From assembly GCA_963850905.1 (NCBI GenBank), contig CAWKMU010000003.1, positions 1,472,001-1,536,000 on the forward strand: DNA of 64,000 nt, given 5' to 3'. The notes beneath the pieces are model-generated. The model was not told the DNA's origin. It was given only the letters and a program-made list of their open reading frames with translations, and ran no database searches. Positions 54,228-61,907 of this stretch are shown in pieces. A program made the translations under genes and the position numbers. This DNA comes from an uncultured Gemmatimonadales bacterium. GTDB taxonomy: Bacteria; Gemmatimonadota; Gemmatimonadetes; Gemmatimonadales; Gemmatimonadaceae. Position 1 is the first letter of the stretch, and every line of letters starts with the position of its first letter.

Positions 54228-56281
54228 TTAAGCCCCCACCCCAATCGTCTGCAACGCCAACTCGACCTTGCCGAACGGCGCCGACACCTGCACTCCCTGC
54301 ACCGAGGCGCGCACCCGTTCCAGCATCTCGCGGGCGATCGCGATACCTTCGGCCACGGCGTGCTCCTTGGAGCGGTCGTTGGCGCGACGCATGCGCTCGA
54401 TCACACTGCGTCGGAACGGCCACACCGGGCACCTCGTTGGCCAGGAACTCCGCGTTTCGCACCGAGACCAGAGGCCAGATCCCCGCCACGATCGGGATGT
54501 GGACGTCCAGCGACATCTCGAGGAACCGTTCCAGTTGCGCCACGTCGAACACCGGCTGGGTCACCGCGAACTCGGCCCCCGCTTCCACCTTCCACTCGAA
54601 CCGGCGAAGCTCGTGGGCGCGGTCCACGGCAGCGGGATTGACGCCGACGCCCGATGACGAAGCGTGTCGGCGCGCCGATCTCGTTGCCGCCGGGATCCAG
54701 GCCGTGATTGAGCCGCGACACGAGATTCGTGAGACCGATCGCGTCGATGTCGAAGACCGCCGTCGCGTCGGGATAGGGGCCCATCTTGGGTGGGTCGCCC
54801 GTCACGAGCAACAGATTCCGCAGCCCCATCGCGGACGCGCCGAGCAGATCGCTCAGCATCCCCAGGAGATTGCGGTCGCGGCAGCAATAGTGCGTCACGG
54901 TCTCGATCCCGACCTGTTGCTGAATGAGGATGCTGACGAGCACCGCGCTCATCCGGCTCTGCGCCCGGGGTCCGTCGGGCACGTTGACCGCGTCGACGCC
55001 GGCCCGGCGCAATGCGGTCACCTCCTGCACCATGCGCACGGGATCCACGCCACGCGGGGGCACGATTTCCACCGACGTCACGAATTCGCCAGCGGCCAGC
55101 TTCGCCGCCCACCTCGAGCGCTCGGCGAACGCGACGGGCGCCACGCCCGGCTGTGCGACGGAGATGCCGCCATCCGTGCCGGTTGCGGTGCGCGCATGCA
55201 CGCGCGAGAGGCGCCCGCCGCCGGCAGATTGCAACACGGTCGCATGCGTCGTCGCGTCGGCGGCCCCGTCGGAGTCTGGCACCCCATGATGCCGGGGGGC
55301 GAGGGGACGCACGCCGGCCGCCATCGCGTGGATGTGCTCGGGCGTCGTCCCGCAGCATCCGCCGACGATCTTGGCGCCCGCTTGCACGAGGTGCCGAGCG
55401 TACGTCGCCATGTACTCGGGGCTCGCCATGTACATGCTGCGGCCGCCGACTTCGCGCGGCATTCCAGCATTCGGCTGAGCGGACAGCTTGCGCCGGGTCT
55501 CCGGGACCATGCGCTCGATCGCGTCGAGAATCGCTTGGGGACCCACGGAGCAATTGAGTCCAATGACATCGGCGCCGAATCGGTCGAGTGCGCGCGCGAC
55601 CTCCTCGGGTGGCACGCCGTACGGCGTTCGGCCATCGACCCCGATCGTCATTTGCGCGATGACCGGCATTGCCGGATCGACGTCGCGGGCTGCACGAATG
55701 GCCTGCTCCATCTCGTCCAGATCGGCGAACGTCTCGATGACGAAGCAATCGGCGCCGCCGTCTGCCAGCGCCTGCATCTGCTCGCGAAACATCGCCCGCG
55801 CCTCGTCTCGGCTCGTGGGACCGTAGGGCTCGATCCGAATCCCGAGTGGACCGACGGCGCCCGCGACGAGCCGCCGGTCACCGGCCGCTGCGCGTGCGAT
55901 CTGCGCCGCGCGTCGATTGAGCTCGACGACCTGCGATTCGAGGCCGTACTGTGTGAGCTTGACGCGGTTCGCGCCGAAGCTGTTGGTCTCCAACACCTCG
56001 GCGCCGGCGCGCGCGTAGGCATCATGCACCGCTCGCACCAGCTCGGGCGATCGGGCATTCAGCTCGTCGTAGCACTGGTTGATGAACACGCCCTTGGCAT
56101 AGAGCATGGTCCCCATCGCGCCGTCGAAGACGATGACGCGCTCGGGGTCGACCAGCCGTGCTAGCAGGTCCGCGCGAACGCGCGACGCAAGCGTCGTCCC
56201 TACAGTCGATGCGCCAGTTCCGGGGGTAGTCCCGATCTGCGCGTCGGCGGGCGACGCTTGCGCCGCCTCTACAGAGGTCAT
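54228..56281 (-). CDS. yitJ: Bifunctional homocysteine S-methyltransferase/5,10-methylenetetrahydrofolate reductase (YitJ-like); apparent +1 frameshifts near 54651 and 54410
   Basis: DGAMGT, GLNCSVGP and GGCCGTTPEHI motifs; HYCCRDRNL and VTGDPPK; continues in ORF 54136-54627 (KVEAGAEFAVTQPVFD) and 54228-54425 (GVQVSAPFG). Confidence 0.9.
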
Positions 56282-59200
56282 GCGGCCGCCTCCACGCCCC
56301 CGGCTTCACCGCGCACCGCGTAGTACTTGGCGTCCGGGTGGTGCACGATGATCGCCGCGGTCGACTGCTCGGGCACGAGCTGTCCAGCACTGGTCAGCGA
56401 CATGCCCAGGGCGTCCGCGACGGGTAGCAGGCGAAAGACCGTGGTGTGGTCGTCGAGATCGGGGCACGCGCCGTACCCCCACGAGTAGCGCTTCCCCTGC
56501 CGATGGGGCGAGCCCCCATTCGCGACGGATTCGACGATGCATCCATTCCGCGACCGCTTCAGCCGCCTCGACCGCCAGGCCGTGCACGTAGTACGCCTCC
56601 GTGTACTCGCCAGCATGCTGCAGCACGTCGAACCGCGCGGCAGCTGCATCGCCGACAGTCACGACCTGCAGCGCGACGACATCGACCTCGCCCGAATCCG
56701 ACCGATCGGAAGTAGTCCGCGATGCACAGACCGCTCGCGACCGACCTGGCGGGGAAAGTGGAAGCGGGCGATCTCGCGCAGGGCGCCGCCGTCGCTCTCG
56801 TATGCCGCCGGATCGTAGACGACCAGGTCGTTGCCCTGCGACTGCACGGGGAACGCCCCGTAGACGGCTTGCGGCACGAGCCAGCGGTCGCGCGCGGCTT
56901 CGGCGCTGAGCCGGCGCGAGCGTCGGGCTGAACTCCTCCTGCACGGTGCGGTCGAATGCGGGCCCAGAGCCACGGCCGCCCCATTGCAGACGGAACAACT
57001 CGTCGAGGTCGAGGAGTGAGAGCACCTCGTCGAGCGGGATGTCGCGGAGGACGCGCGCGCCGAAGAAGGGGGCGCGGGGCACGGGGACGTCGGTGCGCAC
57101 GCCGCTGCGTTCTCCGCCGGCGATGCCCGCGGCGACGTCCTTGCCGACGGTCGCGTGCAGGAACACGTCGCGCCGTGCGGCATCGATCGCGTCCGCGAGA
57201 ACCCCCGCCCGACGGTCGGGATCCATGAGCTGGTCCATCATGGCCAGCCCTTCGAACGCGTCCTTGCAGTAGAACACACCCGCGGCGTACGGCACGCTCG
57301 CCGTCGACGAACAGCGCCCGCCGGCCAAAGCGACGGTTGATCGCGGCGCCGCCGATGAGGACCGGATATGCCAGTCCCCGCTTGTCGAGCTCCTGAACGC
57401 AGAGCGGCATCTGCTTCGACGTCGACACGAGTAGCGCCGACAGCCCGATCGCGTCGGCACCAACCTCTTCGGCTTTCTCGATGATCGTGTTGACCGGCAC
57501 CTGCTTGCCGAGGTCGTACACCGTATAGCCGTTGTTCGCGAGAATCGTGTTGACGAGCGACTTCCCGATGTCGTGGACGTCGCCGTACACGGTCGCCAGA
57601 ACGACCTTGCCCTTGGTGTAATCCGCCGACCGCTCGAGGAACTGCTCCAGATGCCGCACGGCGCGCTTCATGACTTCGGCGCTCTGCAGCACAAATGGCA
57701 GGATGAGCTCACCCGCGCCGAACTTGTCGCCCACCTCTTTCATCGCGGGCAGCAGCACGTCGTTGAGCACCCGAACCGGCTGCTCGCGAACGCCGGCTGC
57801 GTCCAGCAGCGCCTCGATGCCTTCTTTCTTGCGGTGCACGACCGCCCAGTGGATGCGCTGGTCCGCGGTCATGCCCGCCGTCGGATCGGCGGCGCCGTCG
57901 CCGGTCGCGCCGCGCCGGCTCTCGGTCCCCGCGCTGGCGAAGTGCTCGATGAAGCGCTGCAGCGCATCGGCCCTCCGGTTGAAGACCAGGTCGTCGGCCA
58001 GGGCGCGCTCGGTCGCATCGACTTCGGCGTACGGACGGATGTGGGCGGGATTGACGATCGCCGCGTCCAGTCCGGCGGAGACGCAGTGGTGCAGGAAGAC
58101 CGAGTTGAGGACCGCGCGGGCCTCGCTCGTGAGGCCGAAGCTCACATTCGAGACGCCGAGGATCGTGAACACACCAGGGAGCTCGCGCTTGATCAGGCGG
58201 ATCCCTTCGATCGTCTCAGTGGCCGAGTCGATCCACTCGGCCTCGCCGGTCGCGAGGGTGAAGGTGAGCGCGTCGAAGATGAGGTCGGACGAGGTCAGGC
58301 CGAACTCGTGGGTCGCGATGTCATGGATGCGGCGGGCGATCTCGAGCTTGCGGTCGCGGGTGCGAGCCATCCCTTGCTCATCGATCGTGAGCGCGACGAC
58401 GGCTGCGCCATGCCGGCGAACGAGCGGCAGCACGTCCTCGATCCGCTTGCGGCCATTCTCCATGTTGATGGAGTTGACGATGCCGCGGCCCGGCAGGTGG
58501 GCGAGCGCGGCCGCGATGACGGACGGCTCGGTCGAGTCAATGACGAGCGGCGTGTCGACGCTCATCGACAGCAACTTCACGACACGCGCCATCTGCTCGG
58601 CTTCGTCCCCACGCTCCGTGAGCGCGACGCACACATCCAGCACATGCGCGCCCGATTCGGCTTGCTCGCGGGCGACCCGTACGATGCCATCGTAGTCATC
58701 CGCGAGCAGGAGCCGTTTGACCGCGCGCGAGCCCTGTGCGTTGACACGCTCACCGACGAGGAGCGGCGGTGGGTCCTGGTGCAGCGTGATGGCGCGCATC
58801 GCGCTCGAGACACGGGCGACACTCGTCGCACGCCGGCGATCCATGGCGACCGCGCGAGCGCCATTGCCCAGGGGGCGGATGGCCTGCACGACCGCCTGGA
58901 GGTGCTCGGGCGTGGTGCCACAACAGCCGCCGACGATGCGCACGCCGAAGTCGCGCACGAACTCGGAGAGCGCCGTAGCGAGTGGCGCCGGCTCGAGCGG
59001 ATAGACCGCGTCGCCCGTCCCCGTGTTGAGCGGGAGTCCCGCATTGGGGATCACGGAGATGGGACGCGTCGCGTGTTCCGTCAGATAGCGGACTGGTTCC
59101 CGCATGTGCTCGGGCCCCGTCGAGCAGTTGAGGCCGACGATGTCGACGCGAAGCCCCTCGAGCGTCGTGAGCGCACTGGCGACATCGGTGCCGAGCAGCA

Positions 59201-59813
59201 TGCGGCCGCTCGTGTCCAGCGTCACCTGTGCTTGCACGGGCACACGATGCCCGAGCTCGGCGAAGAGGCGCTCGAATCCCGCGATCGCCGCCTTCACCTC
59301 GAGAATGTCCTGCGCCGTTTCCACGAGGAGGACGTCGACGCCCCCTTCGACGAGCGCTTTGGCCTGGGCGTAGAAGTTGTCAGCGAGTGCGTCAAACGTG
59401 ATGGCGCCGAGCACCGGGTCATCGCTCGACGGCAGCATCCCGGTTGGGCCGATCGAGCCTGCGACGAATCGCGGGTGGTCGCTCGAGGCGTGCGCGTCGC
59501 ACGCGGCGCGCGCGAGCCGGGCCGCGGCGACATTGAGCTCGTGTATCCGGTCGCCGATGCCCCATTCGGCCAGCCGCCTCGGAGTGGATTGGAAGGTGCA
59601 CGTTTCGACGACATCGCAGCCGACCGCGAGAAACGACTCATGGATGCCGCGGATGACGTCTGGCCGCGTCAGGACCAGATGGTCGTTACACCCCTCGAGC
59701 GACTTGCCGCCGAAATCGGCTGCCGAGAGGTGGTGGCGTTGGATGTTGGTTCCCATGGCGCCGTCGTAGATGAGGACGCGATCGGCGAGGGCTTCGAGAT
59801 AGGCGGACGTCAC
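56278..59813 (-). CDS. metH: Cobalamin-dependent methionine synthase; five apparent +1 frameshifts between about 56500 and 57300
   Basis: DGAMGT, GGCCGTT, GERVNAQGS, LGVSNVSFG and B12 motif DVHDIGK; activation domain RYSWGYGACPDL and PEQSTAA, pieced across three frames. Confidence 0.95.
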
Positions 59814-59904
59814 GTCGGCTACACTGCGGGGGTCAGGGGACCACACACGAACGGATTCGGGACTCCGGAACTGCCACAACGAGCGCCAAACACAGCAACG
59901 GCTC

Positions 59905-59939
59905 AAAACAAAAACGCCCGGACGGTCATCCCGCCGGGC
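59905..59939 (-). terminator. Intrinsic terminator (riboswitch expression platform)
   Basis: Minus strand GCCCGG-CGG-GATGA-CCG-T-CCGGGC followed by GTTTTTGTTTT. Confidence 0.8.
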
Positions 59940-59944
59940 TCTGG

Positions 59945-59996
59945 CGGTTTAGCGGAATGTTTTACGTGGCCGCAAGTTGCCGTAAATCGCCACGAG
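59945..59996 (-). ncRNA. SAM-II (SAM_alpha-like) riboswitch
   Basis: Minus strand CGTGGCGATTTACGGCAACTTGCGGCCACGTAAAACATTCCGCTAAACCG has the SAM-II pattern (P1 CGUGG/CCACG, GAUUU, UUGC, GCUAAA) and lies upstream of metH. Confidence 0.85.
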
Positions 59997-60057
59997 TACA
60001 GTTGTGTCTCACAATCTAGCGCCGCGTCAGCCAGCACTCAACGGCGGATCGAAAGGC

Positions 60058-60156
60058 GGGGTCAGGGATCAGGGGAACAAACTGTAAGCCGGATCTACGT
60101 CACAATGCCTCTCGCGGGCAGTGAGTTCCCTGGTCCCTAGCCCCTGATCCCTGACC
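60058..60156. repeat. Heptamer-armed palindromic element, type C, copy C2
   Basis: GGGGTCA GGGATCA GGGGAAC...GTTCCC TGGTCCC TAGCCCC TGATCCC TGACC. Confidence 0.82.
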
Positions 60157-60397
60157 ACGCCTTTTTGTCCTACCTCGGACTCGCCGCCTAGCGCTGTCTG
60201 ATATCTGCCCTGGCAGCCTCTACCGTACGGGTGTACGCTGGGTTCGACGGCGTGGGCGGCGGGGGACCGAGTGACTCGGCTGGCGCCCGGAACGCTGGTG
60301 CCGAGCAAGCTCGGCTCCCGACCGCGCCGTCAATCGTCTGCTGTGTAGGAGTGGGGCGTGCCTCGCCCCGTGTCTCGCGTGGCCCTCCGTTCGGGGC

Positions 60398-60497
60398 TGC
60401 GATAAAGGCAAACCCGGCGAAAGCCGGCGACGCAAAGCTACGAGGCTACCGTGTGTGCCTGGTCGACGCGCACACCATGCCAGTCGAGCCGCCGAAC
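60398..60497 (+). ncRNA. c-di-GMP-I (GEMM) riboswitch
   Basis: GGCAAACCCGGC-GAAA-GCCGGCGACGCAAAGC P2 signature; P3 with tetraloop-receptor-like GGCTAC...ATGCC; 3' GCCGCCG. Confidence 0.92.
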
Positions 60498-60513
60498 AGT
60501 TCGAGGAGGGCCA

Positions 60514-60639
60514 ATGCGAACGACAGCGAGTCGTCTGGCGTGGGTGCTGTGCGCGTTGCTGGCAGTTTCTGTCGCCGCGTGCGCGCAGCAGGGAGTGACG
60601 GATCCTCCAGTGGTGGTGACGCAGGTGAACGGCGGATGA
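60514..60639 (+). CDS. 41-aa putative micro-lipoprotein
   Basis: GAGGAGG RBS; MRTTASRLAWVLCALLAVSVAAC signal with lipobox VAAC; directly downstream of the riboswitch. Confidence 0.7.
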   Translation: MRTTASRLAWVLCALLAVSVAACAQQGVTDPPVVVTQVNGG

Positions 60640-60643
60640 AAAC

Positions 60644-60765
60644 GGGTCTAGGGTTTGGGGTTTGGGGTCCGAGGTAACGACGACAACAGGGAGGGCCAGT
60701 CGCTGCGTACCGTGACTGGCCCTCGCGTTTTGTTGTAGTTACCCCAAACCCCAGACCCCAAACCC
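60644..60765. repeat. Heptamer-armed palindromic element, type B, copy B2 (inverted relative to B1)
   Basis: RGGGTYT arm, core GAGGGCCAGTCGC-N8-GTGACTGGCCCTC, then ARACCCC arm. Confidence 0.9.
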
Positions 60766-60778
60766 GCCGTTTTCGCTG

Positions 60779-61183
60779 CTACCTCGTTCTCTCCTCCGGA
60801 CCGACATCGCCGTGCCCCCGCGATCGCGCCCGGGCCGTGACGGATTGGACCAGCGCGACGAGACGTTGACGTTCGAGCGGCAGAGTGAGATCTGCGAGCG
60901 TGAGGCGCTGCAGCGAAGCGGGCAGCGGCAGCGGCGCATCGTCGGTGCCGTGGTACAACACAATCGATCCCCCTGGAGCGAGCCCGTGGAGGCCAATGTC
61001 ACGAGCGGATTGGATAGCCGTCGCTCGATCGACCACCACGACGAGCGGTGGGTCGCCGGCGGTCTGGACGGTGGCCTCGTGCAAACTATCTGCGAGTGTG
61101 ACGCGATAGCCAGCGGCCGCGAGTGTTTGCGCAAGCCCCTCGAGCAAGGCGTGATCAGAGCCGATCAACACCGTACCAAACAT
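60779..61183 (-). CDS. Atypical single-domain receiver (CheY-like) protein
   Basis: GAGG RBS; receiver-like pattern (LAQTLAAAGYRV..PLVVVVD..ADLTLPLE) with the acidic pocket and conserved Lys degenerate. Confidence 0.6.
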   Translation of the reverse strand: MFGTVLIGSDHALLEGLAQTLAAAGYRVTLADSLHEATVQTAGDPPLVVVVDRATAIQSARDIGLHGLAPGGSIVLYHGTDDAPLPLPASLQRLTLADLTLPLERQRLVALVQSVTARARSRGHGDVGPEERTR

Positions 61184-61298
61184 GAGTACCTCGGATACCT
61201 CTTGCGGTCAGCATTGGAACTCACAGTGGCGATCATGTATCGAGACCTGCCTCGATACCCTCACGCCGCCGCTGGCCGCTGCCGCCACGGAGTATCTC

Positions 61299-61907
61299 CT
61301 AGCCGCCCCGCGCGAGCAAGCTCAGCAAATAACCGACAAACGGCTCGATGACGTACGCGAGCAGAATCCATGCGATGAGCGGCGACAGATCGAACATCGC
61401 GACCGGCGGGATGAGGCGGCGGATCGGGCGGATCATCCATTCGGTGAGGCTGAAGGCCCACCGCACCCACCCGGAGTAGCGCGAGAGATTGATCCACGAC
61501 GTGACCACGCGGACGATGAGCGCGATCTCCAGCAAGAGGAAGGTCCACCGGATCAGCACGCGCGCCACGCCGTAGACGCCCAACGCCCCGGCGAGCTCAC
61601 CGGCCATGCCCCGGATGTACGTCAGCACCTCGAGCAACACGATCCCACCAATCACCACGACGGCGAGCGCCCACCACGGCGCGCTGGAGGGCAAACCACC
61701 CGCGCGCACGACGCGCCGCTCGATGGGCGCGAGGAGGGGATCAACCGTGCTCCGGAAGAAGCGCGCGATCGGGCCGAAGGGACTGACACGTCGCGTGCGC
61801 ACGAGCCAGTCGATGGCCAGGACCAGCGTGACCACGCCCGCGAGCGCGGCGAGCGTCGGTCGCAAGAACTCCAGGATCACGTCGAAGACGCCCAACGTTC
61901 CGCTCAT
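61299..61907 (-). CDS. yggT: YggT family protein
   Basis: Two YggT-like halves; LTEWMIRPIRRLIPPVAMFDLSPLIA motif. Confidence 0.85.
   Translation of the reverse strand: MSGTLGVFDVILEFLRPTLAALAGVVTLVLAIDWLVRTRRVSPFGPIARFFRSTVDPLLAPIERRVVRAGGLPSSAPWWALAVVVIGGIVLLEVLTYIRGMAGELAGALGVYGVARVLIRWTFLLLEIALIVRVVTSWINLSRYSGWVRWAFSLTEWMIRPIRRLIPPVAMFDLSPLIAWILLAYVIEPFVGYLLSLLARGG

Follow-up and report, generated by a model that had tools for sequence, protein, structure and literature searches.

The window, the whole 64,000-nucleotide stretch of DNA analysed here, carries a compact plus-strand unit that is supported by genome comparison as a monocistronic, c-di-GMP-riboswitch-led gene for a conserved micro-lipoprotein. 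Its 41-codon ORF (ATG at 60514 to TGA at 60639) is confirmed by its substitution pattern as a real gene under purifying selection, and the aptamer ahead of it (60397–60499, with P1 closing at 60499) is confirmed by covariance-model matching as a canonical c-di-GMP-I (GEMM-I) riboswitch, RF01051. The source assembly (G000; congeneric genomes are G001 to G009) is 4.49 Mb in size and 82% complete.

The unit is flanked by a minus-strand metH gene with a SAM-II leader and by a convergent gene for a 134-aa protein, called receiver-like from sub-threshold NCBIfam matches; YggT and VanZ-like genes also lie near the micro-ORF. An EPS locus containing deacetylase, glycosyltransferase and O-antigen-ligase-family genes begins just beyond the unit. 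As the first-pass annotation had described, the micro-ORF is the lone gene downstream of the aptamer and is followed by a palindromic intergenic repeat, B2 (about 60644–60765), and by the convergent gene, whose end at 60779 is 140 nt from the micro-ORF. B2 starts 5 nt past the stop codon, outside the gene, and is a genome-wide repeat with 49 merged loci at E<1e-5. It surrounds an intrinsic-terminator-like hairpin with a T run (60691–60724, plus strand; terminator scan), and a hairpin core resembling it is also present 3' of the ORF in G004 and in the metagenome locus L217. A second family of palindromic intergenic repeats, with 8 loci genome-wide, is found at 60055–60161, and congeners carry other types at these places. 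The riboswitch leading metH (SAM-II, SAM_alpha, RF00521, 42 bits) occupies 59929–60003 on the minus strand, and a SAM-II leader is near the convergent neighbour gene in 17 of 27 related loci. metH and an adjacent methyltransferase/reductase-like gene (54401–59906, minus strand) appear split across frames, probably by assembly frameshifts.

Aptamer, leader and proposed switching

The RF01051 match at 60397–60496 covers the whole model (positions 1–87) and scores 70.7 bits (E 1.3e-13; gathering threshold 35), which bears out the GEMM-I assignment made in the first pass. The Shine-Dalgarno (SD) sequence GAGGAGG (60503–60509) is 5 nt past the Rfam end at 60497, agreeing with the spacing given there. 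In a whole-library Rfam scan, the top label on the aptamer bases was RF03167 (c-di-GMP-I-GGC), with 61.6 bits against a gathering score of 59. The consensus of this variant has G at the position equivalent to A47 of Vc2, the region reading GACGCGAA in the consensus and GACGCAAA in the window aptamer, where we take A60434 to be the A47 equivalent. It is presumably the base at this position that names the variant; because the consensus G is replaced here by the usual A47, the aptamer was filed as canonical c-di-GMP-I and the RF03167 label was rejected in spite of its score above gathering.

The equivalents of Vc2 G20 and C92 are G60407 and C60492, respectively, and position 20 is G in six of six orthologous loci, confirming the earlier call of G at this position, which favours c-di-GMP over cGAMP. 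According to PMC6140456, G20 and C92 are ligand contacts, switches with G20 respond to c-di-GMP and those with A20 to cGAMP, and wild-type Vc2 binds cGAMP at only 10 uM. A cGAMP (GEMM-Ib) riboswitch requires A at position 20 and was rejected on finding G60407. The ligand is very probably c-di-GMP. A pattern search revealed six canonical GGDEF motifs in the source genome. One GGDEF-like motif, on contig C2 of G000, has Ser where the others have Asp, a replacement that marks cGAMP-making Hypr enzymes.

Upstream of the aptamer, a promoter-like TGGCAG/TACGCT site with a 17-nt spacer is located at 60211–60239. It was not picked up by a generic sigma-70 scan; motif and spacing are the same in six of six orthologous loci and recur within the genus in 22 paralogous cassettes that have a riboswitch, and we infer a promoter role for it. 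A rod-shaped 5' hairpin at the presumed transcript start (60246–60331, plus strand) has an MFE of -59.5 kcal/mol (z -2.37) and shows compensatory change at 6 of 33 consensus pairs in five sequences. Its CCCGGAA loop is invariant in five loci, and the rod sequence differs in G003. The rod matches no Rfam family, and a covariance model of it (R1) has matches in 4 of 61 genomes, at the micro-gene locus only. Because R1 finds just the loci from which it was built and Rfam gives no match, we read the rod as a locus-specific hairpin, and the candidates of a tandem second riboswitch or a known ncRNA were set aside. The rod may serve to stabilise the transcript. A look-up of RNA runs over 59900–61300 listed none, which has no bearing on expression.

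A plus-strand element at 60375–60397 consists of a strand (60375–60388) complementary to the SD and AUG and an overlapping local hairpin (60382–60397). The complementary strand pairs with both SD and AUG in constrained and in free folds, the anti-SD/SD duplex amounts to -29.7 kcal/mol and G001 has matching changes on both sides; a purine-rich SD precedes the ATG in all six orthologous loci. In all six micro-genes, constraining P1 and P2 while leaving the pocket open adds 1.1–3.0 kcal/mol to the energy needed to free the SD, and holding P1 makes SD opening costlier in 14 of 15 cassettes scored (20 were given and 5 were missed by the pattern). Of 26 related cassettes, only 19 have a cognate anti-SD/SD pairing that is stronger than the median of non-cognate combinations. 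In the mechanism that we propose, the ligand would clamp P1, which would extend into the helix that buries SD and AUG. The first-pass annotation had left the direction of control unstated; folding favours repression, and high c-di-GMP probably turns translation OFF through the extended P1. Equilibrium folding fails to explain the ON state, because freeing the SD of G000 takes 15 kcal/mol even when no ligand is present (burial of SD and AUG is worth 15–18 kcal/mol in G000 and G004), and the ON state would need co-transcriptional trapping of the local hairpin 60382–60397.

A family of short lipoprotein genes under selection

Compared with its relatives, the gene proposed in the first pass proved to be conserved. 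It occupies the same site in five of ten congeneric genomes (G000–G004), the syntenic copies encoding 41 aa in G004 and G001, 38 aa in G002 and 48 aa in G003, and the metagenome locus L217 contains a copy of 46 aa; it was not found in G005–G009 (66–98% complete, two above 90%). Nei-Gojobori dN/dS for the three close pairs among G000, G004 and G001 is 0.20, 0.17 and 0.13, with Fisher p of 0.05, 1.5e-4 and 1e-5, respectively. In the two G001 pairs, constraint on the mature part (0.10–0.11) is no weaker than that on the signal part (0.15–0.24). The other 12 of 15 pairs, which are deeper and whose tails align poorly, range from 0.28 to 0.69, above the neighbouring gene (0.10–0.28 in 6 pairs). Random placement of substitutions predicts 14–15 amino-acid changes against 7 seen (reached in at most 2 of 20000 trials), a deficit with P about 1e-4 or less, and 0.027 for the closest pair. 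Substitutions fall chiefly at third codon positions (14/22 and 16/25). One antisense frame shares these third positions and shows a similar pattern; no start-led antisense ORF of at least 35 aa covers the micro-ORF. The ORF remains intact across dS near 1.

These three copies stop at one shared codon, which is TGA in G000, TAG in G004 and TAA in G001, and different repeats follow, those of G001 and G004 being of other kinds than B2. The possibility that B2 had truncated a longer gene, raised in the first pass, is rejected on this common stop position in three genomes, and also because a promoter-like site, a 5' hairpin and a terminator belong to the gene itself.

The encoded protein has a VAAC lipobox at residues 20–23, preceded by a basic n-region and a hydrophobic h-region, and the Cys is invariant in 19 of 19 aligned sequences, the lipoprotein call coming from a rule-based scan. 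A lipobox consensus with invariant Cys is the hallmark of Sec/SPII lipoproteins. The source genome has two Lgt (PF01790) and three LspA (PF01252) matches over cut-off. Very probably, the product is lipidated at Cys23 (codon at 60580) and cut by signal peptidase II, which would remove the signal peptide encoded at 60514–60579. The 19-residue mature product suggested at first agrees with this position of the Cys; the terminal GG suggested along with it is kept in only 4 of 23 family members, namely the four closest sequences, while 10 of 23 end in G and tails vary from 16 to 39 residues.

Searching 1.84 billion representatives with a profile yielded ten matches at E<=1e-3, of which nine are true members with real lengths of 41–59 aa; the tenth, P0018 (E 3.8e-4), is repetitive and was discarded as a chance match. 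The 118 aa listed for P0014 result from a gene caller that read through the leader, the true ORF being 59 aa, and the leader part is identical to the translated window aptamer at 15 of 15 residues. Altogether the family comprises 23 distinct sequences, all of 36–61 aa, and an upstream riboswitch could be shown for seven of them. Contrary to the expectation that annotation would miss the ORF, the identical protein and relatives named 'hypothetical protein' are present in the protein collection. Long homologues were found neither at E<=1e-3 in the profile search nor at E<=10 in a longer-homologue search (weak evidence), and with all members at most 61 aa, the earlier concern that the homologues might be N-termini of longer proteins is not borne out. 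Scans of family members against Pfam, NCBIfam and PDB sequences gave nothing above cut-off, and the ESM Atlas value of 0.78 for the window protein is a lead only. Strong matches (at least 64 bits) occur in 5 of 401 genomes of the taxonomic family, all from this genus, and in 3 of 401 genomes of the phylum, which are among those same ones; the DNA of one family member (L147) lies in a Gemmatimonadales record. P0025 (E 0.32), a lipoprotein of 41 aa that contains TDP and has another signal peptide, resembles the family and was left out; its ESM Atlas neighbours are larger unnamed small-protein clusters.

Three motifs distinguish the members from 80 other lipoprotein-like ORFs of the genome, with counts that are partly circular because members were gathered by similarity: TDP (23/23 vs 0/80), C-x-Q (22/23 vs 2/80) and, in the signal peptide, R-x-x-W (22/23 vs 4/80). 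R7 is invariant and W10 nearly so at 33–95% identity, and the h-region varies freely. A looser motif, S/T-x-P within about 10 residues past the lipobox Cys, is seen in 37 of the genome's 81 lipoprotein-like ORFs against a 9% background, and soon after the lipobox in 47 of 73 other riboswitch-led lipobox ORFs. Such S/T-x-P is generic in the lipoproteins of this organism and is a candidate routing or glycosylation signal. Nearly identical tethers also stand at the start of long, unrelated proteins that no riboswitch precedes (17 of 17 weak matches examined). For both reasons the mature motif may be a mere routing signal, and the micro-protein can therefore be described as a signal peptide plus tether without cargo.

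The shared cassette and the origin of the micro-gene

Ten genomes of the genus contain 55 RF01051 matches: the micro-gene follows in 5 cases, an ORF of at least 100 aa in 48, and a short, frameshifted-looking ORF in the remaining 2. Among the 48 longer ORFs, 38 match the lipobox loosely, including a few false cases. Four such paralogous genes in the source genome encode Big_2, weak lyase-like or beta-helix domains. A pattern scan of GTDB located the aptamer in 76 of 124 stretches among the matches listed, mostly Gemmatimonadota records; from these and the Gemmatimonadales record of L147 we take the source organism to be one of the Gemmatimonadota. With all loci pooled, not one of the 73 other riboswitch-led ORFs with a lipobox closes below 100 aa among the matches listed (the pool includes one row from the unpublished G016). 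The promoter-like site, here as TGGC-N-TAnnnT, the anti-SD hairpin and the aptamer are common to 28 cassettes, 6 of the micro-gene and 22 others. The riboswitch is thus dedicated to the micro-gene locally, as first claimed, and is at the same time a copy of a cassette found across the genus, which mostly heads long lipoproteins. Membership of the micro-gene in a c-di-GMP regulon of surface lipoproteins would be the best explanation of this arrangement.

Three tandem riboswitch-led genes for Big_2 and lyase-like lipoproteins are present inside the EPS locus (L090 4125–10008, G000:C3:1556043–1562007), two of them with a promoter-like region unlike that of the micro-gene cassette. In five congeners, a separate c-di-GMP-I riboswitch heads a conserved protein of 116–126 aa without lipobox (L224, L225, L226, L266 and L267).

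In 17 loci of other genera that hold the neighbouring gene, no aptamer was found; a SAM-II leader is nearby in 12 (one being G016), at a distance of 82–131 nt in 9 of those 12, which represent empty sites, and 2 of the 17 end at a contig edge. The empty sites in other genera therefore show that the unit was inserted between the metH leader and the convergent gene. Concerning its source, the tethers closest to that of the micro-protein after the Cys belong to long riboswitch-led lipoproteins, about 2.5 SD above the mean of 73. In a weak cassette tree, the micro cassette of G003 groups with its own long paralogue, and a single micro clade is neither favoured nor rejected (p-AU 0.20); the species tree of the neighbouring gene (7 rows) has no supported branch. 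It seems reasonably likely that the micro-gene arose as a cassette that was copied, cut just after the post-Cys tether and then kept. This truncation origin is argued from the shared cassette and the weak tree, because no long protein scores as a true homologue. At L250/L246 (G003:C23), the P3 sequence of the micro-gene aptamer is that of the aptamer of a long paralogue 10 kb off, which suggests gene conversion between cassettes.

A comparable birth has been proposed for E. coli MntS, a small protein thought to originate from the 5' end of a secreted-protein gene with inherited regulation (10.1101/2023.06.02.543501). Like MntS, the micro-gene shares its regulatory region (promoter motif, anti-SD hairpin and aptamer) with relatives, here the 22 paralogous cassettes. 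In contrast to MntS, it has kept a lipobox Cys and a selected mature tether and is under c-di-GMP riboswitch control, and as to the specific homology to the N-terminus of one longer protein subfamily that would be expected of an MntS-type remnant, there is the tether similarity described above and no long match.

Possible function and comparison with known systems

An envelope or biofilm role of the micro-lipoprotein is plausible. In the reading that we favour, the lipid and the C-x-Q-x(2-3)-T-D-P motif of the mature lipopeptide would form a short docking ligand on envelope machinery, either that for the lipoproteins of the regulon or the neighbouring EPS system, and the variable tail would be dispensable. 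The model for such docking is LptM (YifL), whose conserved and essential part is a few residues past the lipidated Cys and which acts on LptD (10.1101/2025.01.03.631273). The micro-protein is likewise a small lipoprotein with conserved residues after the Cys. Membership in LptM/YifL was rejected: NF047847 scores 15.0–15.9 bits against 27.7 (P0003 and P0013), over the signal peptide only, and CGLKGPLYF is absent. We know of no riboswitch for LptM. Docking in the manner of LptM on LptD is a tentative proposal, which we put slightly below even chances; post-Cys export signals exist in Bacteroides (PMC13692018).

The T/S-x-P tether after the Cys might be a real sorting or modification signal of Gemmatimonadota, with the micro-gene as its cargo-free form. 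We regard this as unlikely. If true, the product would be a c-di-GMP-gated decoy or clamp that, by competing, tunes how the cell's adhesin- and lyase-like surface lipoproteins are exported or glycosylated; a second messenger would then control a secretion pathway by way of a minimal mimic of its substrates, and the lipoprotein routing code of the phylum would be defined by this peptide. To a similar degree we doubt that the signal peptide is the working part, with an MntS-like second function or as a released peptide signal, and that the tether serves only for processing. R-x-x-W, with its invariant R7 and nearly invariant W10, and the precedents of MntS and of signals derived from lipoprotein signal peptides (10.1101/2023.06.02.543501) speak for such a role, but the mature part is no less constrained in the G001 pairs, TDP is invariant and the h-region varies freely, the circularity of the motif counts applying here too. 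That an abundant surface lipopeptide acts physically, either through an O-glycan on the invariant Thr anchoring polysaccharide or through an entericidin-type change in adhesion, is distinctly unlikely. The invariant T-D-P on a lipid anchor, the adjoining EPS locus and a 5' hairpin suggestive of a stable transcript would suit it, and overproduction of Atu8019, a very small lipoprotein of the entericidin type in Agrobacterium, causes aggregation (PMC7296081). The mature sequence differs from that of Atu8019, however, no entericidin EcnA/B match was found in Pfam or NCBIfam among the members scanned, and five congeners have riboswitch-led long lipoprotein genes without the micro-gene.

It is improbable that the RNA itself is the product, a stable c-di-GMP sponge with a token ORF. 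The unit is compact, with its own promoter-like site, a covarying 5' rod, a terminator and an SD and AUG that are strongly buried in G000 and G004, and it resembles Bdellovibrio merRNA, a short stand-alone transcript around a c-di-GMP aptamer that has no conserved ORF (PMC3627812). The bias of substitutions to third positions and motifs that persist across 23 sequences point to a selected ORF in the present case, so that merRNA-type membership, which requires the absence of one, was rejected. That the micro-gene is a dead remnant of a long lipoprotein gene, severed by B2 or by assembly error, is very improbable and already largely refuted. The closeness of B2 to the stop, the apparent frameshifts in metH nearby and the narrow distribution would fit a relic, yet three genomes share the stop position ahead of different repeats, only 140 nt remain before the convergent gene, simulation of neutral change for just one pair introduced a stop in 40% of trials while the real ORF persists to dS near 1, and there are 23 short members and no long one. 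The chance that the peptide is a precursor modified at a C-terminal GG, as the first-pass annotation had considered, is close to negligible: the four closest sequences end in GG and ten in G, but 19 of 23 lack the GG end, tails differ widely in length, and the neighbours (metH, receiver-like, YggT and VanZ-like) include no modifying enzyme.

Returning to the riboswitch, the arrangement is similar to Vc2 of Vibrio cholerae (RF01051) in its score above gathering, its G20, A47 and C92 equivalents and its location directly over the ribosome-binding site. It differs from Vc2 in its target, a 41-aa lipoprotein, and in an anti-SD strand located 5' of the aptamer, which would extend P1. In Clostridioides difficile, class I c-di-GMP riboswitches sit over 58-aa domainless proteins and act OFF, described as transcriptional; the combination of such a riboswitch with a small protein without known domain is common to both cases, but the product here is predicted to be a lipoprotein, a term not applied to the C. 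difficile proteins in the relevant passage of PMC11477304.

Searches of full-text literature, which reached few subscription papers and no supplements (riboswitch survey tables could list these loci), turned up neither the family nor any riboswitch-led micro-lipoprotein of such kind in Gemmatimonadota. Each component has precedent, and among the genomes searched the family occurs in only some members of one genus. With this locus come an unnamed family of 36–61-aa lipoproteins under selection and one of the rare instances in which a riboswitch for a second messenger heads a micro-lipoprotein gene. It looks like a recent case of a small protein that split off from the 5' end of a larger gene and retained that gene's regulation, for which the empty sites and paralogous cassettes are still visible. 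Judged by its sequence, the micro-protein corresponds to just the secretion signal and the short anchoring segment of the bigger surface proteins usually found under these switches, and because it is a cargo-free signal peptide and tether, it may offer a natural minimal probe of surface-lipoprotein routing in Gemmatimonadota.
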